Source: a virus (taxonomy: Duplodnaviria > Heunggongvirae > Uroviricota > Caudoviricetes). Taken from it: 64,000 nt of DNA. The first letter of the stretch is position 1; each line of letters opens with the position of its first letter. The stretch is taken from the IMG/VR virus record IMGVR_UViG_3300049638_000482. One strand, 5' to 3'. Positions 1-64,000 of the stretch are shown in pieces. The notes under the pieces were generated by a model. The model had not been told where the DNA came from. It ran no database searches and saw only the letters and a program-made list of their open reading frames with translations. The position numbers were made by a program, and so were the translations under genes.

Positions 1-3000
1 GATGCAGCCCAGGGTATTGCATACAAGACCACCACGGGCTATGTGTATGACTACACCGTTGAGGAGGATGAGGCTAATCTCCCGAGCGGCGTCTCCGCAA
101 GGACCGCCAACCAGAAGGTCGAAGTGATTCTCACCGAGAACGATAACGGCACTATGTCGGTATCCCAGAACACAGGTACTGCTCAGAAGCCCGTTTCCTT
201 CGTCAATGATTATTCCGAGGATGACGCCATCGTTCAGATTGCCGGTAAGAAGAAGCTGACCTCTGATAGCCGTGATGTGGATCTCGCCGCCATCGCAGGC
301 AAGTTCCACTTCACCATTACAGCAGCAAATGGTGCTCCTCTGCCTGTGCAGACGGATGTCACGAACCAAGCTGATGGTACGGTTGACTTCGGTCAGATTG
401 TCTATAGCCAGGGTATTCTCAACGGTAGCAAGCAGAAGACATTCAGCTATCAGGTCAAGGAAACAGGCTCCGTGGCGGGTATTACCAACGACACTGAGAA
501 TGTTAAGGACTTCGCCATCACCATTAAGGATAATGGTAAGGGCGCTCTGACGGCGACACCTAATAAGGCTCTTGGTGACCTGTTCGAGTTCACCAACAAG
601 TACTCCTCGAATGGCGTTGAGATTCCGGTTAACATCACCAAGGTGCTCACCGGTAAGAACCTCAAGAAGGGCGAGTTCTCCTTCCAGGTTAAGAGCGCTG
701 ATGGCACTGTTCTGCTCAAGGGCACCAACGGTAAGGATGCCGCCAGCGGTGAGGCTTCGACCAGTGAGATTGGCAAGCTTCGCTTCCTGCATGAAGGCAC
801 CTACACCTACACCATCATCGAGCAGAACACGGGCGATCAGGGTATTACCTATGATACCTCCAAGTATCAGTTCACCGTCACGGTAACCAATGATGGTAAG
901 GGCAACCTGCAAGCCTCTGTCCACGGTCAGGATGGTGCAAGCGGAACGGCGGTTCATGCCACCTTCAGGAACACCTATAAGCCGGCTCCTGTGGACGTGG
1001 GTATTCGCTCCTCCAAGACGCTTGTCGGTCGTGATATGAAGGCTGGCGAGTTCAGCTTCATCCTTAAGAACGCCATCGGTGAGACCGTCAAGACGGTTAA
1101 TAATTCCGCCGCCAAGGATGGTCAGAGTTCAGTCCTCGATTTCGGCAAGCTCAGCTACGATTATGATAAAATCGCAGATGATGTCGAGATGGGTCTGGCC
1201 GTGCCGGATGCTCAAGGTGGCTACACCTACGGGTATTCAATCTCCGAGGATAAGACCAACCTGCCCGAGGGCATCACAGCTCCTAGTAAGGTTGCATTCT
1301 CTGTGAGGGTGTCTGATGCTGGCAACGGCAAGTTGCAGGCTGAGGTTATCTCCGACGGTAAGACGGTCAAGCAGGATAACGGCATCGCAACCGTTGAAGG
1401 CCTGACCAACCGCTACACTGAGAAGAACAACCCGCTTCAGGTGGAGCTCCGGGGTATTAAGACGCTCAGCGTTGGTGAGGGTCTGACCAAGCCGGATATC
1501 ACGGGTAAGTTCCACTTCACTATCAGCAGTTCTGATGGCGCTCCGATGCCTAGCAAGAAGGACGTCACCAACGATGCCAATGGTAATGTGGCGTTCGGTG
1601 ATGTCACCTTCAATAGCACCGACTTCAAGGAGGGCGAGACCAAGGTCTTCACTTACACTGTTAAGGAAACCGGCACCGTTCAGGGCGTAACCAACGATTC
1701 CGAGTCTACCAAGACGTTCACCGTCAAGGTAACAAGGAAGAACAACACGCTGGCAGCCGTTGTTGCGGATGGTGCTGATACCGCCTTCACCTTTGTCAAT
1801 AAGTACACCGCTTCGCCTGTCAAGGTTGAGATTGGTGGAGATAAGACGCTGTCTGGTCGTGACCAGAAGGCGGGCGAATTCTCCTTCAAGTTGCAAAACG
1901 AGAAGGGTGAGACAGTGGCTAATGCAACCACCTCTACCGATGCCAAGGACGGAAAAGTCGATGACTTCAAGTTCTCCGCGCAGACCTTCTCGAAGCCGGG
2001 TATTTACAATTATCTGGTGTCCGAGGAATCCGGCAACGGGAACGGCATCACCTACGATACCTCCGTGTATAAGGTGCAAGTCAAGGTGACGGATAACGGC
2101 AAGGGTGCTCTGCAGGCTGAGGTTTCCTATCCTGATGGTCAGCAGGGTATTCACTTCAAGAACACCTACAAGCCGGCTCCTGAGACCGTCGCAGTGGATA
2201 TTGCCAAGACCTTGAACGGTCGTGACATGACGAGCGACGAGTCCTTCAAGATTAAGGTCGCTTCTGAGGACGAGGCATCTGAGGGCACCCAGGCGAAGGA
2301 TAAGAAGGATGCGGGTGAGAAGGCCACCGCTAACAGTGCCACTCTCAAGTCCACCGAACTCCTGTTCCAGAACCTTAAGAATGGTGATAAGGGTGTTGCA
2401 CCTGATTATGTCACCTTCACCCAGCCGGGTATTTACCAGTATGCCATTTCTGAGGAGTCTGGTAATGCCGTCGGTGTCACCTATGACCAGTCCGTGTACC
2501 ACGTCAAGTACGTTGTTACGGATGATGGCAACGGTCACCTCGTGGTGCAGACCCTCTTCGGCAAGGATGAGGACAAGCTGTTCGAGTTCAAGCCCTCAGA
2601 GGGTATTCAGCGCCCTGTGGCGGAGTTCGTCAATACCTACACGCCGGATAAGCATAACTCCATCGACGTGGAGAAGTATGATGAGAAGTCCGGACCTCAG
2701 GACGGCGACCGCGACGACCCGAAGGACGCCCTGACAGTTAATGGTGACACCACCATCGACATCAAGGTGACCAACACTGGTGATGAGACTTTGACCGATC
2801 TCACCCTTAACGATGAGACGGTTGAAGGTTCAGGTACTCTGGGTGAGCTTAAGCTCCCTCAGACCACCTTGAAGCCCGGTGAATCCATTGTGGTGAGTGC
2901 CCAGCTCTCGGGTATTGGTCTCGGCGGTTCCCATAGGGATACGGCAACCGTAACTGGCAAGACCCCCGAGGGTAATATGGTAACTGACAAGGATGATTGG

Positions 3001-3186
3001 AACGGCAAGCGTTCCATCATTCCGACTGTGCAGTTGGCTCAGACAGGTGCGAATGCGTCTGTGCTGGGGCTGTTCGCTCTCGCAGTCGCTGGCGTGGGTA
3101 TTGCACTGGTTGAGTCCCGCAGGGTTAAGGCCAGGGCTTCGCGTGGTAAGCACACAGGTTCCTCCATTGGCAAGCACGCCATGTAA
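1..3186 (+). CDS. LAxTG-anchored surface adhesin (5' end cut by window edge) built of tandem pilin-like isopeptide/ester-bond-type beta-sandwich repeats
   Basis: Frame is open from nt 1; first in-window start is GTG at 43. Repeated ~110-aa units show K..AGEFSFxL, GxYxYxIxE and VxVTDNGKGxLQA patterns typical of SpaA/FctA-like Gram-positive adhesin domains. C-terminus is LAQTG + hydrophobic helix + basic tail, a sortase signal. A stem-loop/T-tract terminator follows. Confidence 0.8.
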   Translation, partial: DAAQGIAYKTTTGYVYDYTVEEDEANLPSGVSARTANQKVEVILTENDNGTMSVSQNTGTAQKPVSFVNDYSEDDAIVQIAGKKKLTSDSRDVDLAAIAGKFHFTITAANGAPLPVQTDVTNQADGTVDFGQIVYSQGILNGSKQKTFSYQVKETGSVAGITNDTENVKDFAITIKDNGKGALTATPNKALGDLFEFTNKYSSNGVEIPVNITKVLTGKNLKKGEFSFQVKSADGTVLLKGTNGKDAASGEASTSEIGKLRFLHEGTYTYTIIEQNTGDQGITYDTSKYQFTVTVTNDGKGNLQASVHGQDGASGTAVHATFRNTYKPAPVDVGIRSSKTLVGRDMKAGEFSFILKNAIGETVKTVNNSAAKDGQSSVLDFGKLSYDYDKIADDVEMGLAVPDAQGGYTYGYSISEDKTNLPEGITAPSKVAFSVRVSDAGNGKLQAEVISDGKTVKQDNGIATVEGLTNRYTEKNNPLQVELRGIKTLSVGEGLTKPDITGKFHFTISSSDGAPMPSKKDVTNDANGNVAFGDVTFNSTDFKEGETKVFTYTVKETGTVQGVTNDSESTKTFTVKVTRKNNTLAAVVADGADTAFTFVNKYTASPVKVEIGGDKTLSGRDQKAGEFSFKLQNEKGETVANATTSTDAKDGKVDDFKFSAQTFSKPGIYNYLVSEESGNGNGITYDTSVYKVQVKVTDNGKGALQAEVSYPDGQQGIHFKNTYKPAPETVAVDIAKTLNGRDMTSDESFKIKVASEDEASEGTQAKDKKDAGEKATANSATLKSTELLFQNLKNGDKGVAPDYVTFTQPGIYQYAISEESGNAVGVTYDQSVYHVKYVVTDDGNGHLVVQTLFGKDEDKLFEFKPSEGIQRPVAEFVNTYTPDKHNSIDVEKYDEKSGPQDGDRDDPKDALTVNGDTTIDIKVTNTGDETLTDLTLNDETVEGSGTLGELKLPQTTLKPGESIVVSAQLSGIGLGGSHRDTATVTGKTPEGNMVTDKDDWNGKRSIIPTVQLAQTGANASVLGLFALAVAGVGIALVESRRVKARASRGKHTGSSIGKHAM

Positions 3187-3220
3187 TGTGGATTGTTAGT
3201 CAAGGGTTAGCCTAGTCTGG

Positions 3221-3258
3221 AAAGGTCGCTTCGCTTTGGCGGGGCGACCTTTTTATTA
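3221..3258 (+). terminator. Rho-independent terminator after adhesin gene
   Basis: 9-bp inverted repeat aaaggtcgc / gcgaccttt with a 14-nt loop, followed by ttttatt. Confidence 0.6.
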
Positions 3259-3329
3259 TGATAGATGGTAGCGAACGCTTTTCTTGAAGAAAAGTTATTC
3301 GTCATTCTATTTTTTGAAGGGGTGCTATC

Positions 3330-5066: not shown

Positions 5067-5080
5067 AGGGGTGAGCGGTC

Positions 5081-6493: not shown

Positions 6494-9400
6494 ATGAAGC
6501 TATTTAGAAGTTTAGCAGCGGGTATTACCGCCATGGCGCTTATGGCTGTCCCAACCATGGGCGCTTACGCCGTTCAGGAGAGTGAGTCGCCCTCACCTTC
6601 GCCTACGCAGACCACTGAGTCGCCATCGCCTACGCCTACGCAGACCACTGAGTTGCCCAGCAATAGTGATAACAGCAAGACTACCACTGTCGAAGCCAAG
6701 GAGTTCACCGGTTTCTTCGACAAGGTTACCATGCAGCCAGGTAATTCCTACAAGGACGCACAGAATCACCGGTTCTTTGTCAAGGATGGTGAGTCTGCCC
6801 GCTTCTCAGTGAGCCAGGACGATTCGCAAGTCAACCAGCAGGGAGATTCCCAGAGCGATTCGCAAGGCGACCAGCAGGACGCTTCGCAAGGAGACCAGCC
6901 GGGTATTTCTAAGGACGATTCCAAGAGCTCTTCGCAAGGCGACCCCAAGAGCGCTTCGCAAGGTGATTCCAAGAGCACTTTGACCCCCCACATCGATAAG
7001 GTAATCAGCGGCGATAACGGCGTTCAGAGTTATCAGGCGGTTCTCCCCATCGATGAGGGTGGTACCCCAGTATACAGCTTGGATGCTGGCGAGTATAAGG
7101 CTTATCAGACGGAGGGAGAGACTTCCAGCTCTGTTGATGTTGCTTCCATCGCTAACATCCCGTCTTTCGAGGTCAAGACTGATGGCACGGCTCCTGAGGT
7201 TATGGATAATCAGTCTCAAGATGTGAAAGATGGCACTCAGAGCGTGGACAAGGGGTATTCCATCAGTGCCAGCCGCTTCGCCTTTAACGATGCTGACAGC
7301 GGTATTAATGCTAATAGTGTTACGTTGAAGGTCACTAAGGCGGGTTCCGAAGAGCAGTCTTGGGCTTTCGATAAGCCGTTTGATGAGGGCATGTATAGCG
7401 TCAGCGTTCAGGTGGCTGATAACGTTGGCAACCTGTCTCAGCCGTATACCTTCAATCTGAAGGTGTCTGATACCGCCTCAGCGTATAATGCTGTAACGTT
7501 GAAGAGTGGTGACGGCGTGTACTTCCAGAATGAAAAGCCTTCCAAGGATGCCCAGGTGTTTGTCAAGCCAGGCGCACATCTTGGAGTGAGCGTAGCCTCG
7601 GGGTATTCCATCGATTTTAACGGTCAGAATAACCTGACCGGCGACGCCGTGTTGAATATCCCTACCTCGGGTACTGATAGTTTGCCTGTCACTATTAAGA
7701 GTGATGACGGCTCCACCACGGCTCAGTTCGTTGTGTCGCTTGATGACGTTGCGCCTACCATTGATATGGATGCTGTGGAAAGCCAGCACTTCGGTGCCGA
7801 ATATGCTTTCCGTAGGGACGCCATCAAGGTCACGGACGGCAAGTCGGGTATTCACGCCAATGCGTCTGAGAGCGTTAAAATCAGTGTAGATGGTTCTGAG
7901 GTTTCCGGTGATACTGTAACACTCTCGCAGGGCGTTCATAAGGTTGATGTTTCCGCGAAGGATAATCTTGGTAACGCCTCCTCCATGTCCAAGACGGTGA
8001 CAGTCGTGGATAAGGCTTCATTTTCTAGCAAGGTTGAGCAGAGCGTTGATACATCCTACTACAAGGGTGCTGATGGCGTAATTTGGTACAACGGTCGGAC
8101 CCCTCTCAAGATTCAAGTTGCGGACGGGTATTCAATCTACAAGAAGCAGTCGGTTGACGGTCAGTTCGCCAAGGTCAGTGATAATATCGTGTCCGTCGCT
8201 GATGCCGATTCCGGTGAGGTCTACATTGGTTTTGATGCCCTTGACGGTCATCAGACGGAAGACACGCTTCATAAGCTGACTTTCAAGAAGGACGCCGACG
8301 CCCCGACAAGGGAAGGCGGTCAGCTGGGTATTAAAGACATTCTGGTGTCCGACTACACCGAGAAGAATGGTGTCTACAAGAACGGTGCAATGCTCAAGAA
8401 GCAGAGCGATTTGGGGTATTCTGATAAAAATGGCGTGGGTTTGAATTTTGACGCCTCTTACATCAGTACCAACAACAAGACCCAAATACCCCTCAAGGAC
8501 GCCGCAACTCAAGTTTTGCCGGAGGGCGATAATACCGTAAATATCGTGTTTGTGGATTACCTCGGAAATACCGCTAAGAGTACCTACAATCTGCGTGTTA
8601 GTTCTGATTCCAAGATGAGCGTTTCTGGCGTTTTTGACCAGAAAGACGGTTTTATTTCAACCGGTCAAGTACTTTATCGCAAGTCTGACGGCGCGTATCC
8701 TACGTTTACGTACACGGTGCAGAGTGATTCTGGACTTAAGAATGCCACTGCCAACACCGATGTCATTAAGGTGACAGCTGACGGTAATACGGTTCACGTG
8801 GAGTTTCTCAAGGACGGTTCCGCATCCTTTACGGTGACCAATAATTTCGGTGCTTCTGAGGTTGTTCAGGTTTGCGGTGACACAGTACAGGGAAGCGGAG
8901 AATGGTCTTCCGTGAAGACCGCTCAAGCTTTCTCCAGTGGTAACGTCTCCGTGGAAGGCAAGAACAGCTACGCGAATGGTGGTAAGCGTTGGTATGCCAA
9001 CAAGAAGTCGTTCGCCCAGGGTATTAACATCACTCTGACGGACTCCCCGTCTACGAATGCGCCCATCGATGTTAGTAGGACAGCTGAGCTGGGTATTTTC
9101 GTCAACGGTCAGCACGTCAAGGGTAAGTTGATTGACGGCGCCTCCAAGATGATTGGGCTGGCTGATGACGCAGAGCTGGCGGACGGCACAGACTACACGG
9201 TGTCCGTCGAGGTCTATGATATGCTCGGTCAGAAGACAAAGTTGAGTGACCTAGGTGGCTCCGTTTATCATATTGATTCCGAAGCTCCCAAGGCGGTTAA
9301 TGAAAATATCAAGAGCATCTTTGCCAATGAGAACGCTGCCATCGTGCAAGGTCAGACCGGGTATTACGCCGAGGCCAATAACGTCAGCTTGAAGAGTGCA

Positions 9401-14293: not shown

Positions 14294-14629
14294 ATGGTAA
14301 TGAATATTAGACGCTCATATGTCAGGGCTTGCGCTGGTCTTCCAGTGGTGCTTCTGCTTCTGGCAATTCTTGGCTTTTTGGCTAACATCAAGGTAAATAT
14401 GGGAGTCATGTCTATTGGCCTCATTGCGGTTGTGGTGATGTGGGTCAGCATCGACATGCTCACCCAGGGTATTAACGTCGAAGAGCGTAAGAAGAGTGCT
14501 CCAGCGCCTTTCTTCAACAAGGCTAAGGACTCAAAAGTCTCAGATTCGAATGATGATACCGTGGACGCTACGCAGGTTCTTCCTGAGAGCAGGCTTGATG
14601 ATTTTTCTTATGATGGAGATGTTGCCTAA
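14294..14629 (+). CDS. small membrane protein (2 TM helices)
   Basis: Two hydrophobic helices (LPVVLLLLAILGFLA; IGLIAVVVMWVSI). Start uncertain: TTG at 14264, or ATG at 14294 or 14300. Confidence 0.5.
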   Translation: MVMNIRRSYVRACAGLPVVLLLLAILGFLANIKVNMGVMSIGLIAVVVMWVSIDMLTQGINVEERKKSAPAPFFNKAKDSKVSDSNDDTVDATQVLPESRLDDFSYDGDVA

Positions 14630-28051: not shown

Positions 28052-28234
28052 CCTGTATCATGGGTTCGCCAAGGCGGGTATTCAGCCATGTTGACGGCAT
28101 CGAGGAAAGCATCGTGGGCGGGGTATTCAGTGACGAGGTAAGGGTCGAAGCCCGCGCCAAGGTAGGACCCCCGGGTATTCTTCTCCTTTGCAGGCATTAG
28201 TGGCTTTCTCGCATAATTATAAGCAGGTTGCATA

Positions 28235-32702: not shown

Positions 32703-32838
32703 ATCGAAGTCCTGTCAATGGTGCGGTTGCCCTCAGTACTTCATTTTTCCTGTGTAATACCCATCTCTTGATTGCCTGTTTGACGGCGAGCAGGCCGCTT
32801 GCGTGGCTTTGCTTATGTAGTCAAGATTAAGGAGCGTT

Positions 32839-48700: not shown

Positions 48701-51421
48701 GTGAGTAACAATATAAGTGATAGGTTGTATAGTAGCAAGTTCACTTATTGGGCGTTGGCTCAGCACCAGACGTATAGCCAGGGTATTAGTGACGCCATAA
48801 ACAATGGTAAGGGCAGCGAGGATATCACCGCCTACATGCGTTCCATTTACGGCATTAGCGGTAGTGGCAGCAAGGGTTCAGGACTGTATAACGCCGGTGG
48901 TAATCGTGGTGCAAGTATTTATACACCTGATAAGAGCACTTCCTTCGATTACAACTCTCAAGGTGATAACAATATCCTGTTGAAGTGGCAAGCGCCTAAG
49001 AAGCTCTCGGGCACCTTGGTCAATACCGAGAGTGACGGTAGCTACTTGGGTATTAAAGCCAGTTGGATGCCCATGCTTGGTAACGTACTGCAGGGCGGAT
49101 TCGATGGTCAGACCTTCAACCAAGATAATAATAGCTACCTGTATCGTGATTACACCGATTTGGGTAACTATTCGCAGTATATTTATCTGGCTCTGACTCA
49201 GGGTTCGCCTAACGGCAGCAAGGTTCCTTACGTTGATACGGTTGATAGTAGTTGGTGGGATGCTAATCTTAAGAGCATGTACGCTAATGCTGGTACAACC
49301 AAGGACCTTGACAAGACCAATGGTTTGAATAATTTTGGTGACAGTATGCCTACCCATTGGGTCATGCCCTTCGGAAGCAGTATCTACAACACAGGCATTC
49401 ACAAGGCTGATGTAACCAACTTGACCCAGGGGCAGACAGCGGGTATTAGCCCCAGCTGCCTTAATATCAACCTGCCCGCGTTTAATAGCTACGGTAAGGG
49501 TGATTATCAGACTTTTGCAGGTAACAAGAATCTGAGTGGTTGCTTCACTAAGGGAGGCGATTTCGCAGGTAAGTCTGAAGGCGATGTGGGCAGCTTTAGT
49601 GCCTACGCGCTGATGAGCGAATCCCCGTTCTTCTGGGAAAGCTGGAACCTGTATGATCAGGGTTTGTCTCCTATGGTTGGAACCTCTGGAGGCTACAAGA
49701 GCACTGTCCTCCCCAGCGGTGGCAAGGGGTATTTCTACGACACCAGCGCGGATGACGGTGATGATTCCACGGTGTCCACGGGTGAGATGAAGGACTACCT
49801 CGACATGAAGGGTCTCTTCACCTACTTCATTCCGTATGCTCGCATGGGTAATGCTGTTGTAAATAAGTACTTCGACACTTATGGTCGCACTTACTACAAC
49901 GGCATCTCCAGTGAGGATGGTCATGAGGGCGATTACAAGAGTGACCCCGAGGCTCTGCGCAAGTACTGGCATAACGTCAATCTGGCGCATCTGTACAGCA
50001 TCTATACACCATGGGTTGACCTGATGGACCACGCCGGGTATTCCAAGCCTGTTACGATAAGCTACAACGGTAAGCACTACACTATCAACAACCCGACTGA
50101 CCCTGCTCAGTACCCCGCTGATAGACCAATGGTCTTCAGCAAGGCGGAGCAGTCGAGGTTCGGTCTTAAGGATAGTCAGCTTACGGAGGTTGAGCGCAAG
50201 ATTCAGAAGGTTGCAGAAGATACCGAGAGCGATTACATTGACCTGCTGAACTACTACACCTTCAATGATAATGTGCTCGATACGGCAGCGGCCATGAGGT
50301 TTACCTTCAACTTCAACCGCATCTTCAGCGAATCCAAGCCCGCGGGTATTGGTGGCGATGTGGTAACCCTGTATCCGCAGGCTTATGAGTTGAAGAACTT
50401 CACGTATGATGCTTATCTGCGTCTGATTATCAATAGCTCCACCGGGCAGAAGCTCAACGGGTATTCCTATAACAGCAATGATAACACTGGTGCAGGGTTC
50501 TATGCTCAGACGGTTCAGAATAGTTCGCTGACAACGGCTCTCGGCTTCATCGTATTGGATATATTAGCCATCTACGTGGTGCCGGTGTTGAAGGCCGTCT
50601 TCGTGGTGGGTATTTACCTCATGCTAATTATCTTGCTCTTGGCAACAGTATTCAAGTTGGAAGATAATCCTTGGGGTAAGTTCGTCACTACAATGGGTAA
50701 GCCTCTCATGGTGTTCTTCGCCATAACCACAGCAATGGCTTTCGTGGTCAGTTTGTTCATGGCTAATGGTAGCAACGTCGTCACAGGTGACCAGCAGTTC
50801 GTCATTAGACTGGGTGACCCAACATTGGTTGTTGCGGCGATGATATTCATCAACGGCTTGGTGGCATTTGCCTATCTTATGCTTGCTAAGAAGCTGTGCT
50901 TGAATATCTGGCGTAATGGTAAGGATGTCGCACTGAGCGTCGCTGGAGTTGTCGGTGGCATGGGTAAGGCTCTGGCTGCTGGAGTAAGTAGCGCCTTCAA
51001 GGGTCAGGGCTTCAAGCAGGGGTATTCTCAGAGTCTCAAGACGGGTGCCGCCAGCAATGGTGGCGCTGGGAATACCTTTGGTGGCAAGGCGACTACAGGG
51101 TCGTTCGCCGGTAATGCCGGTGCTGGTGCCACTGGCAGGGCGGCTGTGCTGTTCGCTAAGAAGGAAGCTACTGAGACCCGTAGGCGCGCGATCAAGGCTT
51201 GGCGTCGTCATAAGGCTTCGGATGCTGATATCCAGCGTAACGATAGGCATACGCAGGAGAGTTCAGGCAGGTCTAACAGCGGCTTTATGAGCCTTGGAGG
51301 AAATAAGCCTTCTCAGGGCGATAAGCCTCAGGAAGAGAGTTCCGGTGGTGAGAAGTCCAATGGGCGTCTGCCTTTCAGCCACAACGATAATAAGGGCGAT
51401 AAGGGCAACGACCTCGTCTAG
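45773..51421 (+). CDS. giant (1,882 aa) VirB6/TcpH/ConG-like polytopic T4SS channel protein with large extracellular N-terminal region
   Basis: Signal peptide and ~900-aa soluble region, then several clustered TM helices (LLLIIVIVALILVCFVV...; FIVLDILAIYVVPVLKAVFVVGIYLMLIILLLATVF; MVFFAITTAMAFVVSLFM; LVVAAMIFINGLVAFAYLML). Position fits the VirB6-like component of Gram-positive T4SS. Gly-rich C-terminal tail. Confidence 0.55.
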   Translation: MKKFFRRLWVSLIAIASMLGVTAPAAYADPDAGDSASKGTETTVSASNTYQLFIQLAQNKKLTTADAEMFGDISSEEAQRQWQFFGVLLSNYYAPFSTDLKSDDLTNEKTAGGQAYKNMISLLTSSDGGFQFDKDVAKSIAQGVLGSVQKDSEDLRFGYCKSRDHHVSKDMIDKAQTKPVLKLQEGQCFLDDTGEEPVTWYSLLTAAVGDFPISAVKPSGTTDGTLDDYEKDGNRGDIDTTASKATKTKLGAAVGNGFGVEFDGITESKDKSFGSGGVRNADTVVVYGAKTKFPAFIADMYGEEITPSVQTLMNILKHTATGMGYGTNLIDTPGISDDPSKLNDDNYMSDLLNKAIDPTKYYTFGIPLKLSPFGDLWADGAESSLIVMPGAANPMIYEAIDKDGNDVEDYRGLGQGMLSTFWLQALNEGWIGGNGNKKEACNATNGNNSAVTVANKNLTCSQVRNMMWSAALEKTTDKGNYSLLTPDEESAHGEENLDIDVTGNPDKFGARLSMGRRRAVLFRGARQSEIKGKTGAASFWSGGAKDNQKGINQGFHDFVKAHPKTSMRMVRWIGAYNDNDFWNKQTSQVTFGFPFFNYAALGGDGTTATYSGHHLEAIVNTYDNSNNGLVNTPTNTSPLSMQGYFGSETRESNIGIINIDNTSARPIYDNIFLIDDLGLLSSLSGDSSSDSSSAASSDNQDSSSDSTISDGKINTTGIAVCSARGLVDPKDIGNACKPADGSIKSKDQSTDGFSDAVKNATTKLDGSNDNQPKDGQTLSIDIANPKMKAMLIMTYMAASQNKDSGNQDIKTTWANLGYRFALEQLPAPKHFTLDASVDNSEDKMALEIKNWIWYLLNPTVGFRYKMTLLSGAISSVFIGWHNDMVGASGVGNLPGTTKYTGFNGYVTTPTLSDMEWSDKIVSWYKDHLLLIIVIVALILVCFVVTNTIGMQKAIVSLVAFTVLALIPAAAVNAVATVSNNISDRLYSSKFTYWALAQHQTYSQGISDAINNGKGSEDITAYMRSIYGISGSGSKGSGLYNAGGNRGASIYTPDKSTSFDYNSQGDNNILLKWQAPKKLSGTLVNTESDGSYLGIKASWMPMLGNVLQGGFDGQTFNQDNNSYLYRDYTDLGNYSQYIYLALTQGSPNGSKVPYVDTVDSSWWDANLKSMYANAGTTKDLDKTNGLNNFGDSMPTHWVMPFGSSIYNTGIHKADVTNLTQGQTAGISPSCLNINLPAFNSYGKGDYQTFAGNKNLSGCFTKGGDFAGKSEGDVGSFSAYALMSESPFFWESWNLYDQGLSPMVGTSGGYKSTVLPSGGKGYFYDTSADDGDDSTVSTGEMKDYLDMKGLFTYFIPYARMGNAVVNKYFDTYGRTYYNGISSEDGHEGDYKSDPEALRKYWHNVNLAHLYSIYTPWVDLMDHAGYSKPVTISYNGKHYTINNPTDPAQYPADRPMVFSKAEQSRFGLKDSQLTEVERKIQKVAEDTESDYIDLLNYYTFNDNVLDTAAAMRFTFNFNRIFSESKPAGIGGDVVTLYPQAYELKNFTYDAYLRLIINSSTGQKLNGYSYNSNDNTGAGFYAQTVQNSSLTTALGFIVLDILAIYVVPVLKAVFVVGIYLMLIILLLATVFKLEDNPWGKFVTTMGKPLMVFFAITTAMAFVVSLFMANGSNVVTGDQQFVIRLGDPTLVVAAMIFINGLVAFAYLMLAKKLCLNIWRNGKDVALSVAGVVGGMGKALAAGVSSAFKGQGFKQGYSQSLKTGAASNGGAGNTFGGKATTGSFAGNAGAGATGRAAVLFAKKEATETRRRAIKAWRRHKASDADIQRNDRHTQESSGRSNSGFMSLGGNKPSQGDKPQEESSGGEKSNGRLPFSHNDNKGDKGNDLV

Positions 51422-52534: not shown

Positions 52535-52544
52535 GGAGATAGAA

Positions 52545-56724: not shown

Positions 56725-58839
56725 ATGCTCGAAAGACTGGAAGGCGGAGTTCCCGGAGTCAAGATTTGGTGGTGGGACCTGTGGCGTAAGGTTCTTATTG
56801 ATTACTATCATAGGTATAACTCTAGTGCCAGTATCGTTCGTGATAGTAATGCCTATGCCGATGTGCAGGCTCTGTATAGCGGCAGGGACAGAATCAGCGT
56901 ATTCTACACCCTCGACGAGTTCCCCGAGACAATGACGGTTCGCTATGCCGAAACCATCCGTAATTCCCTTGCTGAGGCTGTGTATGTGCGTATCTCATTC
57001 GCTACCTTGATGGAGAGGTATTCCACCCCTTGGAATAGTGCTAAAATCAAGTCCAAGATTCGTACTTGGAGCACCATTGCCGAGGAGGACGAGAGTACCG
57101 GCTCCGCCTACACCGCTGTCAAGGAGTCAGATCAGCAAGCGCGTATTTCTCGTCGAGAAGCTTCTCTGTATTACATGGCTAACGCAGAGCAGCGCAGAGG
57201 TAGGAGAAGCTTTAGGTTCCGTGTACTTATGATTGTCTCTGGCGTGCGTGGACCTGAGTTTGATAAGGGTCTCACTAAAGTGGAGAAGGTCTGCTCGGAC
57301 TTGGGTATTCGCGCGACCCGCGTCACAGAGAATCTTGACCGCTATATCGCATATTTTTCGCCTTTCCGTTTGGCTAGTGATTCGTCGCTCGCCAAGGGAA
57401 TCGGTAGCACCGTTTTGACGGACGAGATTCTTGCCAGGTTCAATAACTATACTCAGGGTCAGGTAGGAAGAGGACCGATCTACTGGGGCACGGATATCTA
57501 CTCGGGGTACCCAGTATGGAACGAGATTAAGAAGAAGGACACCGACGCCGAGAACCTTCTGGTTGTTGCAGAGACGGGCGGTGGTAAATCATTCTTCGTT
57601 AAGACCATCCTCTTGGGTATTCTCGCTGACAAGCGTTTCGACGCCACCATCATGGATATTGAAGGCTTCGAGTACACTCCTTTGGTGGATATCGTTGGTA
57701 AGAGCGATAAGTGCGTGCAGCTCAATATGGCAGAAGGCAAGGGTGCATACTTCGACCCTGTTGCAGTGTATCAGACCGGTGACCCAATCCTTGATGAGGA
57801 TATGTACACCACCAGCCGCTCCTATACCATCGCCGTTCTCAAGACTCTGATGGGTGATTATTCCAAGAATAACCAGTGGGTGGACACCATCATCAACGAT
57901 GCCGTGTCTAAGACATACCTCAAGGCGGGTGTGACGGAAGACCCGTCTACATGGGCGAATAGTCATAACCTGACTCTGAAAGATGTCTACAAGACCATTC
58001 TTGAACTGTACAAGTCTAATAGCATTGAAGGCGTAAATAAGCTGTATGCTAATAATGCTGGCTATCTTGATGCCAAGGATAGGGTGGTTGCCCAGCTGAG
58101 CCGCTACTTCGATGAGAATGGTACACGAGCGAACGTGTTCAGCCATCCAGTGGGTATTGACACCATCAAGGACGCCCGCGTGGTCATCTGTTCCTTTGGC
58201 CTTGCAGGAAAGACCGAGAAGACCATCGACCCTATTCAGATGGCGTTGACCCAGTTGTTTGCAGCTAATATTGCTGGTCTGCGAAGCCGGTTCGGTCAGC
58301 TCAGAGGTCAGTATAGCCTCAAGTTGTGGGAAGAGTTCCAGCGCTGGTCTAGCTTGCCTGATTCTGAGAAGACCATCGTGACAGCGTTGACCGGTGGTCG
58401 TAAGCTGGGTGATGTTAATATCATCATCACCAACAAGGTCAGCGACCTGTTGAATGGCGATCGCTTCGGTATTTTCGAGACGGCAACCTCCTTCGCCATC
58501 GGCTCAATCCAGGATAGCAAGGTTCGTCACGAGCTGGCTAAGAGACTCAATGTGGAGCGACTTATTCCTGATTTGGATTCCCTTGTAATTGACTCCAGCA
58601 ACAAAGTCAATAACGAGAGATATCGCTACGCTTTCGTGGTTCACCCCGCCAAGGGTATTGAGACGGTTACGAAGATGGATTTGCCGCCGTCCATTACTGA
58701 AAGCCCCCTCTTTAGGACGGGTATTAAGAGGAAGGATGAGACAGCTGATACAGTTAGCAGTCTCGATAAAGCCCTTAGTGAAATCCAGAAGATGGGTATT
58801 GATCTCGGCGGTACTGGTCTGCTTGACATGGACGAATAA
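56725..58839 (+). CDS. VirB4/TrsE/ConE/TcpF-like T4SS ATPase
   Basis: Walker A LLVVAETGGGKSFF. DEAW-like Walker B region YSLKLWEEFQRW. Size ~700 aa and T4SS context. Confidence 0.65.
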   Translation: MLERLEGGVPGVKIWWWDLWRKVLIDYYHRYNSSASIVRDSNAYADVQALYSGRDRISVFYTLDEFPETMTVRYAETIRNSLAEAVYVRISFATLMERYSTPWNSAKIKSKIRTWSTIAEEDESTGSAYTAVKESDQQARISRREASLYYMANAEQRRGRRSFRFRVLMIVSGVRGPEFDKGLTKVEKVCSDLGIRATRVTENLDRYIAYFSPFRLASDSSLAKGIGSTVLTDEILARFNNYTQGQVGRGPIYWGTDIYSGYPVWNEIKKKDTDAENLLVVAETGGGKSFFVKTILLGILADKRFDATIMDIEGFEYTPLVDIVGKSDKCVQLNMAEGKGAYFDPVAVYQTGDPILDEDMYTTSRSYTIAVLKTLMGDYSKNNQWVDTIINDAVSKTYLKAGVTEDPSTWANSHNLTLKDVYKTILELYKSNSIEGVNKLYANNAGYLDAKDRVVAQLSRYFDENGTRANVFSHPVGIDTIKDARVVICSFGLAGKTEKTIDPIQMALTQLFAANIAGLRSRFGQLRGQYSLKLWEEFQRWSSLPDSEKTIVTALTGGRKLGDVNIIITNKVSDLLNGDRFGIFETATSFAIGSIQDSKVRHELAKRLNVERLIPDLDSLVIDSSNKVNNERYRYAFVVHPAKGIETVTKMDLPPSITESPLFRTGIKRKDETADTVSSLDKALSEIQKMGIDLGGTGLLDMDE

Positions 58840-60478: not shown

Positions 60479-60500
60479 GGCGTAAGGGCGGGTATTTAAA

Positions 60501-63008
60501 ATGTCAGCTTTGGATGATTTTAAAGCACAGAGAGCGTTTAAGAAGAACCCTCCAACGGTTATGCCGGGTATGGAGAGTCCAGCAGGCGGAAGCAATATGG
60601 CGTTTCCAGGAGCTAATTCCCCGTTTGGTCAGTCGGCTCCGGGTGCTCCGCCCAGCCCGTTTGGGCCTCAAGGACCAATGAATACGCCTAGCCCCATGGG
60701 AAGTCCGTTTGGCAGCCCGATGGGAAGTCCATTCGGAAGTCCGATGGGCAGTCCAATGGGAAGTCCGATGGGCAGTCCTTTCAGCAATCCTATGGGTAGC
60801 CCTTTTGGTAACACTGCGCCTAACCCCATCGCGCAGCCGGGTATTCCTCAGCAGGGTGCTGACGTGTCGGAGCAATACAAGAAGGACGCTGTCCCAGCAT
60901 TGCTCGCCGTGTTCCGTGGAGTGACGGGTGCTTTTAGGAATACCTCTAAGTACTCGAATGCTAAGACGGGCTTCCATATCATGGTGGCTGGCGCAGTCGA
61001 AATCGTCATAGGTGTGGTGTTGTTCGTGGCTAATCTGTTCCACGGCGGGTATTTCAATGGCCATGCCGCAGTGACGCTGGGCGGTGTCATTACCAGTATG
61101 GCGGGGCTGGGTATTTGGTATGCGTTCAATAGCAGTGGTGCAGCCGAGCGAGCCAAATACGTGGAAGAGCAGCAGAAGCAGTCGCAAGCCCAAGCCCCGC
61201 AAATGCCAGCTCAGCCCGCCTTCACTCCCCCTGAGACACCTGATTTTTTCGCTAACGCCTCATCAAGCGAGGATGAGGACGATGATGATTGGAACTTCTC
61301 GCTATCAGACGATGAGGACGAAGATGGAGAATCTGCGCCCGTTGAGACCAAAGACCCTGACGAGGTGTTGGAGACTATGCCTACGCTCGATAAGGGTATG
61401 TTTACTCGTCAGTATCTGTGGGAGGCTTACAAGCAGGTTCTTCCTCAGGTCAATCCCAACTTTGGTGACATGAACGAGATTGACGAGGACTCCAGCGAGT
61501 TTGAGGAGTGGGGCACACGAATCACCGAGGCAGCCACAGTAGCAGGTCTCAACATTGAGGACGTGTCCCTCGAGTCCATGTATGAGAACCTTTCCATCTA
61601 TCAGCTTAAGGTGACCCGCCAGTCCGGTGCCTCCTCCAAAGAGAAGGTCATGGTTAGCGAAGTGCTCAACTCCTACAAGATGGATGACATGGGTCGCAGC
61701 ATCCCTGAGCGTTCGGGCGCATTTAGCACCTACAGGGCAGGCCGTGGGTATTTATTCATCACCATTTTCAAGGCCAGCAAATATATGGTGTCTGTTGGTG
61801 ACATCTATAATAAGTGCAGCGACTGGGTGCTTGATACCGATGTCAAGGTGCCATGGGCTTACGGCGTGTCTCAAGACGGGGAAATCTGGAAGGGAGACCT
61901 TCTGGACCTTGATAGCATGATTGTGGCTGGTATGCCTCGCTTCGGTAAGTCTTGGAACATGTTCAGCATCATGCTTCAGATGTGCATGTGGATGTCCCCG
62001 AAGGATTTGAACTTCGAGTGCTACGATGTCAAGGAGGGTATTTCCGAGTATTCGACCTTCACATTGCCGCACCTTAAGCGCTTCGAGTCCGACCCTAAGC
62101 GCGTGGTTGAGCGAATTAAGTATATTGTCAACGTGGAGGGCGCTCGCAGGAAGAAGATTCTCGCTCAATATGGAGTAAAGAAGATTCAAGACCTCCCCGA
62201 GGAAGCTCATCTACCTTACTTGTATATTGTCATCGATGAGATGGTTGGTTTGAATAATGCCATTATCTCGTGGGGCGGCAAAGATGAGCTTAATGTCTAT
62301 AGGGATTGCTTGAACAACCTTATCTCGCAGCTCCCTGCCACGGGTATTCGACCGCTGATGGTTCCTCACCGCATCGTTGATAACATCATTCCTAAGACGG
62401 CTTCCAGCTTGGTGGCTTGCCGCATGACGTTGGGTGCCGATACTGATGATGCTTTGAAGGGCGCTATTGATGAGACTTCAGCCGCCTTCGGGTATTCCCT
62501 GCCGAATAAGGGTGATGCGGCGGCTAAGATTGTCACGATGAATAGCGGCAAGCCGTTCTATTGCCATAGTGCTGTGGTGACCACCAGCGACGAGGATAAT
62601 AAGAAGTTGACGAAGTTCGTTCAGTCGGTGTGGAATCGCATTGAGCCTGACGAGAAGGGCTGGTGGGACACCCACAAGCCAGTGAACGCCGCCGCAAAAG
62701 AGAATGAAGTCGCTTCGGAGGGCGCGGAAGGCGATTCCGAAGGAGATGGAACTTTCGAGGTTTCAGGGGTCTCGGTGAAGAAGGATTCCGAGCCGAAGAA
62801 GGAATACAAGCCTGTTTCCAATTGGGTGCCTTCTAATGAGGAGACGTTCCGCCCGAAGCCAGGAGAGGGTATTACCACCGAGAAAGGTGGTTCCACCGCT
62901 ACTCGAGAGAACACCCGATGGGCTGACAACGATAGCGAGGGTAGTACTCAGAGTGCTAAGGACTCTAAAGAAGATGAGGACCCTTACGACTTCTGGGATA
63001 GCCTTTAG
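60501..63008 (+). CDS. FtsK/SpoIIIE-family coupling ATPase (TcpA/Orf21-like) with low-complexity MGSP-repeat N-terminus and 2 TM helices
   Basis: Walker A VAGMPRFGKSW, Walker B YLYIVIDEM. N-terminal (MGSPFGSP)n. TM helices FHIMVAGAVEIVIGVVLFVANLF and VTLGGVITSMAGLGIWYAF. Acidic linker. Confidence 0.65.
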   Translation: MSALDDFKAQRAFKKNPPTVMPGMESPAGGSNMAFPGANSPFGQSAPGAPPSPFGPQGPMNTPSPMGSPFGSPMGSPFGSPMGSPMGSPMGSPFSNPMGSPFGNTAPNPIAQPGIPQQGADVSEQYKKDAVPALLAVFRGVTGAFRNTSKYSNAKTGFHIMVAGAVEIVIGVVLFVANLFHGGYFNGHAAVTLGGVITSMAGLGIWYAFNSSGAAERAKYVEEQQKQSQAQAPQMPAQPAFTPPETPDFFANASSSEDEDDDDWNFSLSDDEDEDGESAPVETKDPDEVLETMPTLDKGMFTRQYLWEAYKQVLPQVNPNFGDMNEIDEDSSEFEEWGTRITEAATVAGLNIEDVSLESMYENLSIYQLKVTRQSGASSKEKVMVSEVLNSYKMDDMGRSIPERSGAFSTYRAGRGYLFITIFKASKYMVSVGDIYNKCSDWVLDTDVKVPWAYGVSQDGEIWKGDLLDLDSMIVAGMPRFGKSWNMFSIMLQMCMWMSPKDLNFECYDVKEGISEYSTFTLPHLKRFESDPKRVVERIKYIVNVEGARRKKILAQYGVKKIQDLPEEAHLPYLYIVIDEMVGLNNAIISWGGKDELNVYRDCLNNLISQLPATGIRPLMVPHRIVDNIIPKTASSLVACRMTLGADTDDALKGAIDETSAAFGYSLPNKGDAAAKIVTMNSGKPFYCHSAVVTTSDEDNKKLTKFVQSVWNRIEPDEKGWWDTHKPVNAAAKENEVASEGAEGDSEGDGTFEVSGVSVKKDSEPKKEYKPVSNWVPSNEETFRPKPGEGITTEKGGSTATRENTRWADNDSEGSTQSAKDSKEDEDPYDFWDSL
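60696..60810 (+). repeat. 12-15-bp coding tandem repeats (MGSP(F)GSP)n
   Basis: atgggaagtccgttcggcagcccg-like units at the 5' end of the FtsK-like gene. Confidence 0.6.
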
Positions 63009-63093
63009 TTGATGAAATGAGATAAAAGTTGGAAGCCCATCGAGCTGCGGTTCGGTGGGCTTCCTGCTATAATAGATGGTAAGGAGTGTTGTT

Positions 63094-64000
63094 ATGCGCG
63101 TTGATGTTCAGTTGGATGACAGTGAGTTGGCTTTGTTGGCAGGTTATAACCGTTCCACCACCATGGGTATTAAGAAGCCGGGCGAATTGCAGCGGGAGCT
63201 GCTCTCGGATATGGAGAACGTTGAGGAGAAGCGTGAGGTGAAAGCAGTCCCCGAGGAGCAGGGTAAGGACGAGGATACTAAGGAAGCCGCGAGCGCTTTG
63301 GAGGACGAAGCAGAAGAAGTTAAGAGCGCTCCAGTGAGGGTCAGGTCTGACTTCCTTTCCATGTTGTCTGCAATGGCTCAGCCTAATACCCACGAGGATA
63401 AAGACTCGGAGGACTCCGAGGTCGAGGCAGAGGACATGGGTATTCTCCCCGAAGACAACGAGGACGAAGACGAAGAAGATGGGAGTGTCCTCCCCGAAGA
63501 TGAGGACGAAGAAGATGGGAGTGTCCTCCCCGAAGATGAGGACGAAGAAGATGGGAGTGTCCTCCCCGAAGATGAGGACGAAGAAGATGGGAGTGTCCTC
63601 CCCGAAGATGAGGACGAAGAAGATGGGAGCACGCTTCCTGACGATGATGACGAGTATGATGAGGATGATGGAATCCTTCCTGCGGATGAGGACGAGTATG
63701 ATGAGGATGATGGAATCCTTCCTGCGGATGACGAGGATGCTGAGGGTGAGAGTGTAGCTTCTGAGGAGCCCACCGCGGGTATTACTGAGCAGCAAGAAGA
63801 CGAGTATTCTTCAGAGTTGTCAGAAGATGATGACGATGAGGAGTATTCTTCAGAGCTTCCAGAAGACGAGGACGACGAAGAAGACCCCTCAGAGTTTCCA
63901 GCTGACGAGGACGATGAGGAAGATTCCAGCGTTCTGCCTGACGATGATGAAGTTGATTATAGCGTTCTCCCAGATGATGACAGCGAAGAAGATTCCAGCG
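63094..64000 (+). CDS. acidic tandem-repeat protein (3'-truncated by window edge), paralogue of 23076-24620
   Basis: ATG at 63094 with RBS aaggag. Not in the ORF track because no stop occurs before the window end. Encodes EDEDEEDGSVLP x4, DEYDEDDGILPAD x2 and YSSELxEDDDE repeats. The 63067-63795 minus-strand ORF is its shadow. Confidence 0.65.
   Translation, partial: MRVDVQLDDSELALLAGYNRSTTMGIKKPGELQRELLSDMENVEEKREVKAVPEEQGKDEDTKEAASALEDEAEEVKSAPVRVRSDFLSMLSAMAQPNTHEDKDSEDSEVEAEDMGILPEDNEDEDEEDGSVLPEDEDEEDGSVLPEDEDEEDGSVLPEDEDEEDGSVLPEDEDEEDGSTLPDDDDEYDEDDGILPADEDEYDEDDGILPADDEDAEGESVASEEPTAGITEQQEDEYSSELSEDDDDEEYSSELPEDEDDEEDPSEFPADEDDEEDSSVLPDDDEVDYSVLPDDDSEEDSS
63451..63730 (+). repeat. 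36-bp (about 4.5 copies) and 45-bp (2 copies) coding tandem repeats
   Basis: gaagatgaggacgaagaagatgggagtgtcctcccc repeated head-to-tail from 63496, then gacgagtatgatgaggatgatggaatccttcctgcggat x2. Confidence 0.75.

Follow-up and report, generated by a model that had tools for sequence, protein, structure and literature searches.

The window analysed here is a stretch of 64,000 nt in which all genes lie on the + strand. It belongs to a giant conjugative plasmid from a host in the Bacillota, related to pXO16, the 350-kb conjugative plasmid of Bacillus thuringiensis israelensis. Two genes point to a replication set of the element's own. A FEN-like 5'-3' exonuclease (14629..15747; Pfam 5_3_exonuc_N 4e-13, PHROG exonuclease) shares 36% identity with pXO16 ORF 260816-261991 and is a putative primer-removal enzyme, and a DnaX/delta'-like clamp-loader ATPase (29099..30403; Pfam DNA_pol3_delta2 2e-22, phrog_5846 5e-52) shares 31% identity with pXO16 327133-328428. 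No primase gene was found within the 64 kb. A giant protein of 1,882 aa (45773..51421), syntenic with pXO16 333216-338720, opens a tip-like transfer cluster. It is followed by a VirB4/HerA-like ATPase of the pXO16 'tip' type (56725..58839; Pfam DUF87, 39.5% tblastn identity to pXO16), for which 327 homologues were found and which served as the family marker by which relatives were collected. The putative coupling protein is an FtsK/SpoIIIE-like ATPase (60501..63008) with an acidic C-terminus and 30% identity to the FtsK-like protein of pXO16. PF01580 is its sole Pfam match, it has no PDB sequence match, and an FtsK_gamma domain was detected neither here nor in the other FtsK-like proteins examined.

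The heptamer GGGTATT is the commonest 7-mer of the window, the runners-up being its own overlaps. The exact count is 189 copies on the + strand, one per ~340 bases (1 per 339 bp), and 3 on the - strand, in agreement with the roughly 190 to 3 of a first-pass annotation made from the letters alone. All + strand copies are exact matches. From 1 to 13826 they start at 12, 411, 477, 840, 999, 1231, 1452, 1998, 2145, 2427, 2601, 2910, 3096, 3765, 4305, 4501, 5161, 5173, 5776, 5860, 6145, 6262, 6520, 6901, 7253, 7601, 7846, 8126, 8326, 8414, 9019, 9091, 9359, 9724, 10034, 10438, 10540, 10747, 11263, 11437, 11579, 11686, 12390, 12433, 12769, 12839, 13282 and 13826; from 13951 to 27330 at 13951, 14211, 14467, 14850, 15378, 15993, 16536, 16661, 17785, 18095, 18481, 18704, 19012, 19108, 19754, 20051, 20095, 20480, 20975, 21103, 21599, 21858, 22078, 22351, 22698, 23086, 23181, 23519, 23664, 23835, 23964, 24126, 24348, 24394, 24530, 24899, 25580, 25802, 25964, 26179, 26215, 26350, 26485 and 27330; from 28076 to 44703 at 28076, 28121, 28173, 28368, 28387, 28927, 28969, 29017, 29464, 29716, 29820, 30292, 30667, 31515, 31632, 32019, 32377, 32901, 33745, 34495, 35325, 35685, 36045, 36423, 36769, 37389, 37534, 38053, 38342, 39633, 39821, 40545, 40718, 40932, 41889, 42164, 42614, 42744, 42921, 43041, 43232, 43470, 43672, 43845 and 44703; and from 44875 to 63777 at 44875, 44966, 45008, 45764, 46244, 46771, 47699, 47920, 48781, 49048, 49441, 49727, 50036, 50344, 50459, 50608, 51020, 51606, 51955, 52238, 52462, 52699, 53666, 53883, 54378, 55408, 55718, 55927, 56232, 56716, 57303, 57615, 58152, 58653, 58719, 58794, 59298, 60010, 60037, 60301, 60490, 60839, 61047, 61109, 61746, 62036, 62342, 62490, 62867, 63165, 63438 and 63777. 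The reverse complement AATACCC lies at 8485..8491, 32756..32762 and 63385..63391, which is the background level; the last is within a + strand acidic-repeat ORF starting at 63095. The first 13 coordinates of the first-pass annotation are all exact, as is its reverse copy at 63385; those it placed at 8496 and 32757 are slightly off.

Markov models of order 0-2 predict 4-6.5 copies. Inside genes, where 170 are observed, permuting codons yields 7.6 +/- 2.9 and a synonymous-codon shuffle that keeps every protein yields 25 +/- 4, with a maximum of 35, so that even this null is surpassed ~7-fold. The enrichment thus withstands the codon-aware shuffling by which it was to be judged (8-25 expected vs 189 on the + strand). 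None of the 21 variants that differ by one base exceeds 11 copies on either strand, and the enrichment therefore belongs to the exact 7-mer, as had been claimed. AATACCC is not depleted (3 observed vs 2-3 expected), so the polarity reflects copies gained on one strand rather than avoided on the opposite one. Throughout the window, each 4 kb holds 7-16 copies.

Within genes the word is read as xxG-GGT-ATT (104 copies), GGG-TAT-T (47) and xGG-GTA-TTx (19). Twelve copies are wholly intergenic, in 2,963 intergenic bp (1 per 247 bp), and coding DNA is sparser with 1 per 347 bp. Packing is denser where coding sets no constraint, as in the 233 bp that separate ORF 27133-28002 from ORF 28235-29077, where three copies (28076, 28121 and 28173; 28076..28179, + strand) sit downstream of a GC-rich hairpin (~28020-28055). 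The use of three frames, the intergenic copies and the excess far above codon-aware nulls uphold the view that this is a nucleic-acid-level signal and not a protein motif. The word is under strong selection on DNA or RNA. It also distorts protein composition, as first proposed: Gly-Ile is enriched 1.8-fold in the window's proteins, 110 of the 157 such pairs are encoded GGTATT, and 104 of these 110 are preceded by G. Spacing is more even than random (CV 0.706 vs 0.989, with 0 of 5000 simulations as low). Only 23 gaps are shorter than 100 bp vs 47.7 expected, and the widest is 1,291 bp (p=0.007). Such a pattern resembles selection for coverage, which is what a signal that has to recur regularly would bring about.

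The identical word is found at the window's density in four of the metagenomic relatives sampled, with +:- counts of 37:0 (L001), 59:0 (L003), 65:1 (L004) and 57:1 (L043). Their VirB4-like proteins show 47-80% identity and their GC is 44-53%. Sites are kept at orthologous positions in 58% of cases in L001 and 32% in L003, against all-7-mer baselines of 12.8% and 11%, which is 3-4.5 times the conservation of other 7-mers. More distant relatives carry related versions, GGGTAT(C)/GGGGTAT in L012, L013, L031, L035 and L041 and GGGGTA in L006, L008, L014, L040 and pXO16. The GGGTA core is common to elements assigned to Bacillus, Clostridium-like, Mogibacterium and Oscillospiraceae genomes or bins. 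We propose that a polar word with this core is common to the whole family and that GGGTATT is its sharpened version, specific to one clade.

On pXO16, GGGGTA occurs 657:5 all round the circle with no skew switch, a spacing CV of 0.71 and a widest gap of 2.1 kb, and all 455 of 455 annotated features lie on the motif strand. Per 50 kb this amounts to 94 copies on + and 0.7 on -, whereas two co-resident B. thuringiensis plasmids have 6-11 on + and 0-7 on -. Since the enrichment is absent from these plasmids, which share a strain with pXO16, the signal appears to be the element's and not the host's, with pXO16 and its two co-residents as a proxy.

Our preferred reading, which we advance tentatively, is that the copies are scattered sites at which the element's own Zn-ribbon/TOPRIM primase starts DNA synthesis, on the lagging-strand template or the transferred strand. 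Primase recognition was absent from the functions first considered, and this reading is close to one that was listed, a signal read on the transferred strand. The family encodes a phage-like replisome. On pXO16 it comprises a DnaB-like helicase, a Zn_ribbon_DnaG protein (PF01807, 1.9e-11), a Toprim_2 protein, a family A polymerase with 3'-5' exonuclease, an RNase H-like protein, NAD ligase, gyrase and clamp loader; DnaB_C and Zn_ribbon_DnaG are also present in L031, L040 and L041, all motif-rich. The word probably has an element-encoded reader that evolves together with it. We infer that this reader is the primase, that the + strand is the strand primed and, from synteny, that the window's clade carries the enzyme.

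The word would then be the template recognition site of a DnaG/T7-gp4-type primase that consists of two proteins, one a stand-alone CHC2 Zn-ribbon and the other a TOPRIM protein, and that would work with a DnaB-like helicase. The + strand, the coding strand, would be the lagging-strand template if forks run with transcription, and the displaced single strand in rolling-circle or conjugative transfer; in either case it would need repeated priming to become duplex. A primase demanding 6-7 nucleotides would meet a chance site only every 4-16 kb. Such sites being too rare, selection would have written them into genes and spacers, evenly spaced at one per 0.3-0.5 kb. pXO16 transfers ssDNA, and the plasmids it mobilises require an intact, correctly oriented single-strand origin (PMC6199540), so priming of the incoming strand is limiting in this system.

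Primases of the DnaG type read their template site through the Zn-binding domain. For T7 this site is 5'-GTC-3' with a cryptic 3' base, and GGGTC, TGGTC and GTGTC are its extended forms (PMC2910064). By analogy with the T7 site 5'-GGGTC-3', which gives pppACCC, the element's 5'-GGGTA-3' would template pppACCC(C), the A and following bases being read but not copied. Usable T7 sites, by our computation, occur once per 248 bp per strand, the same order as the 1 per 339 bp of the window. Unlike the window's word, they show no strand polarity and little enrichment, and the signature therefore lacks a precedent. Also against priming, the window itself has no primase gene, and no DnaG-type primase is known to require as many as 6-7 specified bases, the established sites being trinucleotides that are modestly extended. 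Predicted single-strand accessibility equals that of shuffled flanks (unpaired 0.55 vs 0.55 with DNA parameters, 0.41 vs 0.42 with RNA parameters), which bears neither way on priming.

A transfer signal is less likely, though it comes next. Here the word on the exported strand would be read by the relaxase-less tip-type machinery, through the FtsK-like coupling ATPase or a nickase. The copies would be scattered sites for loading, nicking or ratcheting that set which strand leaves and in which direction, in effect a distributed oriT. Neither a relaxase nor an oriT has been identified on pXO16, although the plasmid transfers ssDNA and mobilises chromosomal markers as well as plasmids that lack oriT (PMC9673590; PMC6199540). 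A strand-specific signal predicts the single orientation seen round its circle, and FtsK-like and VirB4-like ATPases are kept in every motif-bearing relative whose sampled locus spans that region. Against this, no gamma domain for reading DNA was detected in the FtsK-like proteins, the C-terminus in the window is acidic, a starting or loading role has no obvious need for ~200-650 even copies, and the inverted orientation is not counter-selected. Furthermore, C. difficile L036, L018-L021 and L039 encode both ATPases without enrichment of the word. Of these relatives, L036, L018, L019, L021 and L039 also lack the SNF2/gyrB module in the sampled flanks, which may count for priming, a comparison confounded by phylogeny and limited by the 10-kb flanks.

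Given the uniform gene orientation, with which GC and AT skews are confounded in both the window and pXO16, a reader that acts on transcripts or on the non-template strand suits the geometry just as well. GGGTA(TT) in non-template DNA or GGGUA(UU) in RNA could recruit or re-load an elongation or antitermination factor or pause RNA polymerase, in the manner of ops and RfaH, along very long co-directional units, or could bind a protein such as a SpoVG homologue. The ops consensus GGCGGTAG resembles the top 8-mer of pXO16, AGGGGTAG, and genes for SpoVG, SpoIIID and an RNAP alpha-CTD-like protein adjoin the transfer genes in relatives. We nevertheless hold this improbable. Sites of the ops type work once per operon leader and not every 340 nt within ORFs, the pXO16 annotation contains no NusG/KOW-family gene, and the RNA folds show no accessibility bias. 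The word also keeps its normal density in an ORF-free, hairpin-rich 4.4-kb stretch of pXO16 and continues after the window's GC-rich hairpin.

Still less probable is Chi-like self-protection, in which the word would attenuate a helicase-nuclease, either host AddAB/RecBCD or an enzyme of the element, and spare linear or broken element DNA for recombination. The word has in common with Chi its polarity, its high G content, its place on the G-rich strand and its over-representation. The enzyme of Bacillota is AddAB, for which Chi words are short, and some of the relatives sampled have been assigned to genomes or bins of Bacillota; genes for a UvrD-like helicase and several nucleases are present on pXO16. 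The pXO16 annotation contains no AddAB-like pair, however, and the density exceeds ~10-fold that of any known chromosomal Chi of comparable length. A host Chi, as suggested at first, is disfavoured by the unenriched co-resident plasmids and by a GGGTA core shared across differently assigned elements, whereas Chi words differ even among related genera.

The first-pass annotation was right about a DNA- or RNA-level word, but besides a host Chi its polar guide and two of the readers it named are not supported. With a strand that never changes round the complete pXO16 circle, there is no convergence point for a KOPS/SRS-type guide of FtsK/SpoIIIE, and FtsK_gamma is lacking. ORFs 27133-28002 and 28235-29077, named as readers, have no Pfam domain, and no homologue of either could be detected on pXO16, where the motif core is nonetheless kept. 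A functionless by-product of protein repeats or codon bias has a negligible probability: an IMG/VR scan for three close GGGTATT copies returned more than 120 contigs, the densest with 94-100% of gaps in multiples of three and therefore in-frame repeats within giant genes, but the share in the window is 46%, and together with the variants, the synonymous shuffle and the intergenic copies this rules it out here.

No prior description of such a word was found in the literature searchable here. A related word marks the whole pXO16 family, including the B. thuringiensis plasmid pXO16 itself, which is tractable in the laboratory, so that the priming hypothesis would be directly testable there.

GGGTATT is the commonest 7-mer of the window, where a direct count gives 189 copies on the + strand and 3 on the − strand, a ratio of 63:1. 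The three reverse copies (AATACCC) are located at 8485, 32756 and 63385. Low-order Markov models predict 4–6.5 copies of GGGTATT. Within genes, 170 copies are observed versus 7.6 ± 2.9 when codons are permuted inside genes, and versus 25 ± 4 with a maximum of 35 when synonymous codons are shuffled and the proteins are left unchanged. AATACCC is found 3 times in the window with 2–3 copies expected, so the asymmetry appears to come from a gain on one strand rather than from avoidance on the other. The mean density is 1 per 339 bp. ORFs contain 176 of the 189 copies, all three reading frames are used (104, 47 and 19 copies), and true spacers hold 12 copies in 2,963 bp, which is 1 per 247 bp compared with 1 per 347 bp in coding DNA. 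None of the 21 one-mismatch variants exceeds 11 copies on either strand of the window. Background-level variants, codon-aware nulls and spacer copies exclude an artefact of protein repeats or codon usage, to which we give practically no credence. The abundance and polarity that the first-pass annotation had described by eye are confirmed in full and hold for the whole family as well; its first 13 coordinates were exact, and its view of a DNA-level signal in which the exact 7-mer is selected agrees with the counts.

The placement of the copies is more even than random. The gaps have a coefficient of variation of 0.706 compared with 0.989 for random placement, and none of 5000 simulations gave a value this low; gaps below 100 bp occur at half of the expected number, and no gap exceeds 1,291 bp. 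The Gly-Ile dipeptide is 1.8-fold enriched in the window and nearly always encoded as G-GGT-ATT, in line with the amino acid skew noticed at first pass. For two relatives about 72% and 71% identical in DNA to the window, 58% and 32% of the GGGTATT sites are intact at orthologous positions versus 12.8% and 11% for all 7-mers. Even spacing, Gly-Ile enrichment and site conservation show selection on the sites themselves. The flanks of GGGTATT do not differ from shuffled flanks in hairpin formation or accessibility, with DNA or with RNA parameters. A Shine-Dalgarno function is rejected: AGGAG-type sites are ordinary at most genes, and the word lies within 30 nt upstream of only five starts (42639, 45773, 55419, 56725 and 60501), at 9–11 nt in four of them. 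Two seemingly intergenic copies fall inside a small ORF at 25766–26006, whose 45-nt repeats encode DLDFPDV-like units.

The window is related to pXO16, the 350-kb conjugative plasmid of Bacillus thuringiensis sv. israelensis. Among annotated replicons, its VirB4/HerA-like ATPase matches that of the pXO16 tip locus with 39.5% identity over 93% of the query (tblastn, E=3e-138, ten copies of pXO16), and 13 window ORFs match pXO16 ORFs collinearly in blastp. Both share the gene order of a Ser/Thr kinase with an Ig-repeat giant protein, clamp loader, YdjM-like hydrolase, a giant 1,800-aa protein, VirB4-like and FtsK-like ATPases. They also share a polar word with the core GGGTA and the location of every gene on one strand, which on pXO16 holds for 455 of 455 annotated features. 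The two differ in the word itself, (A)GGGGTA(G/T) at 1 per 531 bp on pXO16 versus GGGTATT at 1 per 339 bp, and in GC content (33% versus 50%); the proteins are only 28–40% identical, and the window is known from a metagenome. Besides the clamp loader, the YdjM-like hydrolase and the two ATPases, recognisable genes of the window include those for an isopeptide (FctA) adhesin, a Ser/Thr kinase, an SPFH protein and a FEN-like 5'-3' exonuclease, along with three giant ORFs. All its plausible genes are on the + strand, including an unfinished ORF at 63095–64000 that runs past the window end and carries near-perfect acidic tandem repeats (…EDEDEEDGSVLP… and …DEYDEDDGILPADED…). No minus-strand gene candidate was found in the window, in pXO16 or in the sampled loci of relatives L001–L021, L031, L032 and L034–L039.

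The VirB4-like protein, the marker of the family, has 327 homologues, mainly on metagenomic contigs of 50–370 kb. We could not detect close DNA relatives of the window by blastn in PLSDB and INPHARED, an exact copy of the FtsK-like protein by protein look-up, a match for it in a PDB sequence search, hits in single-protein scans of GTDB genomes and IMG/VR, or Rfam families in the window. Nine family members (L012–L015 and L017–L021, UViGs of 88–268 kb) are filed as viral genomes in IMG/VR; INPHARED phage records gave no match. The pXO16 literature speaks of a 'phage-like nature', without plaques. The FEN-like exonuclease of the window (14629–15747) is 36% identical to the pXO16 ORF at 260,804–261,991, for which the RefSeq name 'potassium transporter TrkH' is probably a misannotation. 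pXO16 also encodes a 765-aa protein (101,892–104,189; L025:1892–4189) that combines several HTH/sigma-70 region-4-like domains in tandem and may bind DNA at multiple sites; no homologue of it was detected in the window.

The identical 7-mer is found with the same density and polarity in loci of relatives (+:−, L001 37:0, L002 23:0, L003 59:0, L004 65:1, L005 46:1, L043 57:1, L042 12:1), with L002 carrying the same VirB4-like protein as L001, and L005 the same as L004. GGGTATT is kept across GC contents of 44–53% and down to 47% identity of the VirB4-like protein. More distant relatives (40–46% identity) have variant words with the same core, GGGTATC/GGGGTAT in L012, L013, L031, L035 and L041 and GGGGTA in L006, L008, L014, L020 and L040. 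The whole pXO16 sequence contains 657 copies of GGGGTA on the gene strand and 5 on the opposite strand; the top 8-mers are AGGGGTAG and AGGGGTAT. GGGGTA is present at 12–27 copies per 10 kb on the + strand in 35 of 35 bins; the gaps have a mean of 531 bp, a largest value of 2.1 kb and a coefficient of variation of 0.71, as in the window. Both GC and AT skew stay positive throughout, without a change of sign in any bin. The reverse words are observed 5 times versus 5–11 expected for TACCCC and 46 times versus about 88 for TACCC; these comparisons, like that for AATACCC in the window, have low statistical power. A 4.4-kb stretch of pXO16 (NZ_CP013277.1 162,886–167,324; L026:12886–17324) has no + strand ORF of at least 80 aa and contains GGGGTA at normal density. 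It is packed with repeated units of ~20-nt inverted repeats (AGCATAGA...TTGTATGGTGT), has no Rfam match, and may serve as an origin or iteron field, or else hold an array of structured RNAs.

Relatives at or below 37% identity that have both ATPases show no enrichment, namely L036 from Clostridioides difficile CD160, L016–L021 and L039, where L020 stands both here and among the GGGGTA carriers. L036, a contig from an isolate (AVHW01000009.1), contains VirB4-like (36%) and FtsK-like (30–34%) homologues on one strand at 25% GC, and GGGTA is not enriched in it (5:1). Other polar words are not dispersed signals: CTACGGA in L010 and TGACCCTGGC in L039 are mainly located in coding tandem repeats, and GACCCTG in L019 occurs just 8 times, within acidic coding contexts. 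An IMG/VR scan for three close GGGTATT copies returned more than 120 contigs, but these matches stem from short tandem arrays or from in-frame repeats of proteins and do not belong to this phenomenon. Seven viral contigs (L065, L091, L074, L059, L071, L102 and L130) carry GGGTATT at 3–6 per kb on one strand. Their gaps are multiples of 3 in 94–100% of cases, within in-frame repeats of giant genes, and a gap series is common to L065, L091, L074 and L059; their resemblance to the signal arises at the protein level. The range of the word is limited to a single family of giant conjugative elements, known from Bacillus and from metagenomes and bins assigned to Clostridia.

The candidates that remain are processes acting on one strand over the whole replicon, i.e. 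complementary-strand priming, strand export, and transcription or RNA. We tentatively favour dispersed primase or ssDNA-priming sites, because the family carries a phage-like replisome. This replisome comprises stand-alone Zn_ribbon_DnaG, Toprim, DnaB-like helicase and family A polymerase, together with an RNase H-like protein, a ligase and a clamp loader. On pXO16 we find Zn_ribbon_DnaG (1.9e-11), Toprim_2 (5e-8) and a DnaB-like helicase, and Zn_ribbon_DnaG with a DnaB-type helicase also in L031, L040 and L041, three relatives with variant words. It weakens the case for priming that the primase genes were located in pXO16 and these relatives and are only predicted for the GGGTATT clade: no Zn-ribbon/TOPRIM primase or DnaB-type helicase was found in the window, and searches with the DnaB-like and Zn-ribbon proteins gave matches in other clades only.

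Template reading by DnaG-type primases is the task of the Zn-binding domain; T7 primase recognizes 5'-GTC-3', with the productive sites GGGTC, TGGTC and GTGTC and a cryptic 3' base (PMC2910064). Priming is also favoured because GGGT-A has the form of these T7 sites. The T7 gp4/DnaG sites are likewise short words on a ssDNA template, in which GGGT is followed by a base that is read without being copied and the primer pairs with the 5' part; with GGGT-C in T7 and GGGT-A in the family, the resemblance is formal only. Usable sites are spaced on the same order, with one every 248 bp in T7, every 339 bp in the window and every 531 bp in pXO16. In contrast to the word studied here with its 6–7 fixed bases, 63:1 ratio and enrichment of about 30-fold or more, T7 sites have 3–5 fixed bases, are 1.2–2 times enriched and number 161 and 159 on the two strands, and this lack of polarity is a point against priming. 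We know of no primase with a 6–7-nt specificity. Such a requirement would make chance priming sites far too rare, and selection would raise them to one per 0.3–0.5 kb with even spacing. The need for 6–7 nt would account for strong selection, density and even spacing alike, for which reason we prefer priming.

Two further observations favour priming. The conversion of ssDNA to duplex is limiting and orientation-dependent in pXO16 conjugation, where mobilisation of a plasmid depends on its own single-strand origin being intact and in the correct orientation (PMC6199540). In addition, the relatives that lack enrichment have the transfer ATPases, but their sampled flanks contain no SNF2/gyrB replication module next to them, a correlation confounded by phylogeny. 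The secondary-structure context of the word, equal to that of shuffled flanks, is neutral towards priming. The word sits on the G- and A-rich coding strand throughout, which is the lagging-strand template only if forks run with transcription. The elements known as sso and ssi are single, long and folded. They resemble the proposed sites as strand- and orientation-specific starts of complementary-strand synthesis on transferred or displaced ssDNA; the family signal differs from them as a 7-mer without associated secondary structure in hundreds of copies.

The transfer biology of pXO16 bears on a related possibility. This experimentally studied plasmid carries a T4SS-like 'tip' locus of a novel kind, whereas neither a relaxase nor an oriT is known for it. 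The DNA that it transfers is single-stranded, and it can mobilise oriT-less plasmids (PMC9673590; PMC6199540). A genome-wide, strand-specific cis code made of GGGTA with lineage-specific flanks may replace a single oriT or sso in the pXO16 family, a possibility we regard as doubtful. With hundreds of dispersed sites, relaxase-less conjugation and a private replisome could together pick out one strand of a 60–350-kb DNA, export it and replicate it again, and the long word would restrict this machinery to self DNA. That the word serves as a signal on the transferred strand, as the first-pass annotation had considered, is unlikely.

A co-transcriptional or RNA signal is rather improbable. Such a reader fits the geometry as priming does, in that all genes share the motif strand, and GGGTATT lies on the coding, i.e. 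non-template, strand as in ops/RfaH-type systems. A single leader site of this type is not what we observe, as 176 of the 189 copies are within ORFs and no NusG paralogue or other NusG/KOW gene is annotated on pXO16.

Chi is a species-specific property of the host genome, and a Chi-like marker, also raised at first pass, is very improbable here. Like Chi, the family word is over-represented, polar and rich in G, and its orientation follows the G-rich strand. It differs in its element specificity: in strain AM65-52, 50 kb from each of two other plasmids with similar GC contain GGGGTA 11/7 and 6/0 times, compared with 94/0.7 per 50 kb for pXO16, which argues against a host-wide enrichment. It also differs in that the GGGTA core is common to elements assigned to Bacillus, a Clostridium baratii-like source, Mogibacterium and Oscillospiraceae, and is hence no host-lineage-specific Chi. 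Given element specificity and a core shared across different hosts, the reader is most simply a conserved product of the element. Two of the window proteins put forward as readers at first pass, those of ORFs 27133–28002 and 28235–29077, have no counterpart detected on pXO16.

KOPS and SRS change strand at the origin, so that both arms point towards dif or the terminus, and they occur about once per 10 kb or less often. They share with the family word that they are G-rich, strand-polar and over-represented in genes in any frame; the family word has a single orientation round pXO16 and an about 30 times higher density. A guide of this type needs convergence on a terminus, which a single orientation on a circle does not give. 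In the FtsK-like proteins of the window and pXO16, Pfam (E≤1e-3, sequence level) detects only PF01580 and no gamma domain. We therefore disfavour the FtsK guide proposed at first pass. DNA uptake sequences (DUS/USS) are about equally frequent on the two strands and are often paired in inverted orientation, unlike the 189:3 distribution of GGGTATT. The share that is left beyond priming, transfer, transcription, Chi and artefact belongs to something not yet conceived.

The literature searched contains no description of GGGTATT, GGGGTA, AGGGGTA or GGGGTAG as a polar genomic word; the pXO16 reviews within it mention none, and an earlier mention in primary pXO16 papers is possible. To our knowledge, this oligonucleotide strand asymmetry is among the strongest in any prokaryotic replicon, and selection on a short DNA word reshapes protein sequences replicon-wide. 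If priming is correct, this would be the first primase of 6–7-nt specificity with sites written all over its own genome, which would amount to self-restricted replication, and the word would be a bioinformatic tag for such elements and for their strand and transfer polarity in metagenomes. A cis code would add a new class to the cis-acting sequences of mobile elements and account for the oriT-independent biology of pXO16. The mechanism of pXO16 transfer is a decades-old problem for which the word offers a concrete, testable cis element, and pXO16 carries the same feature and can be manipulated genetically.
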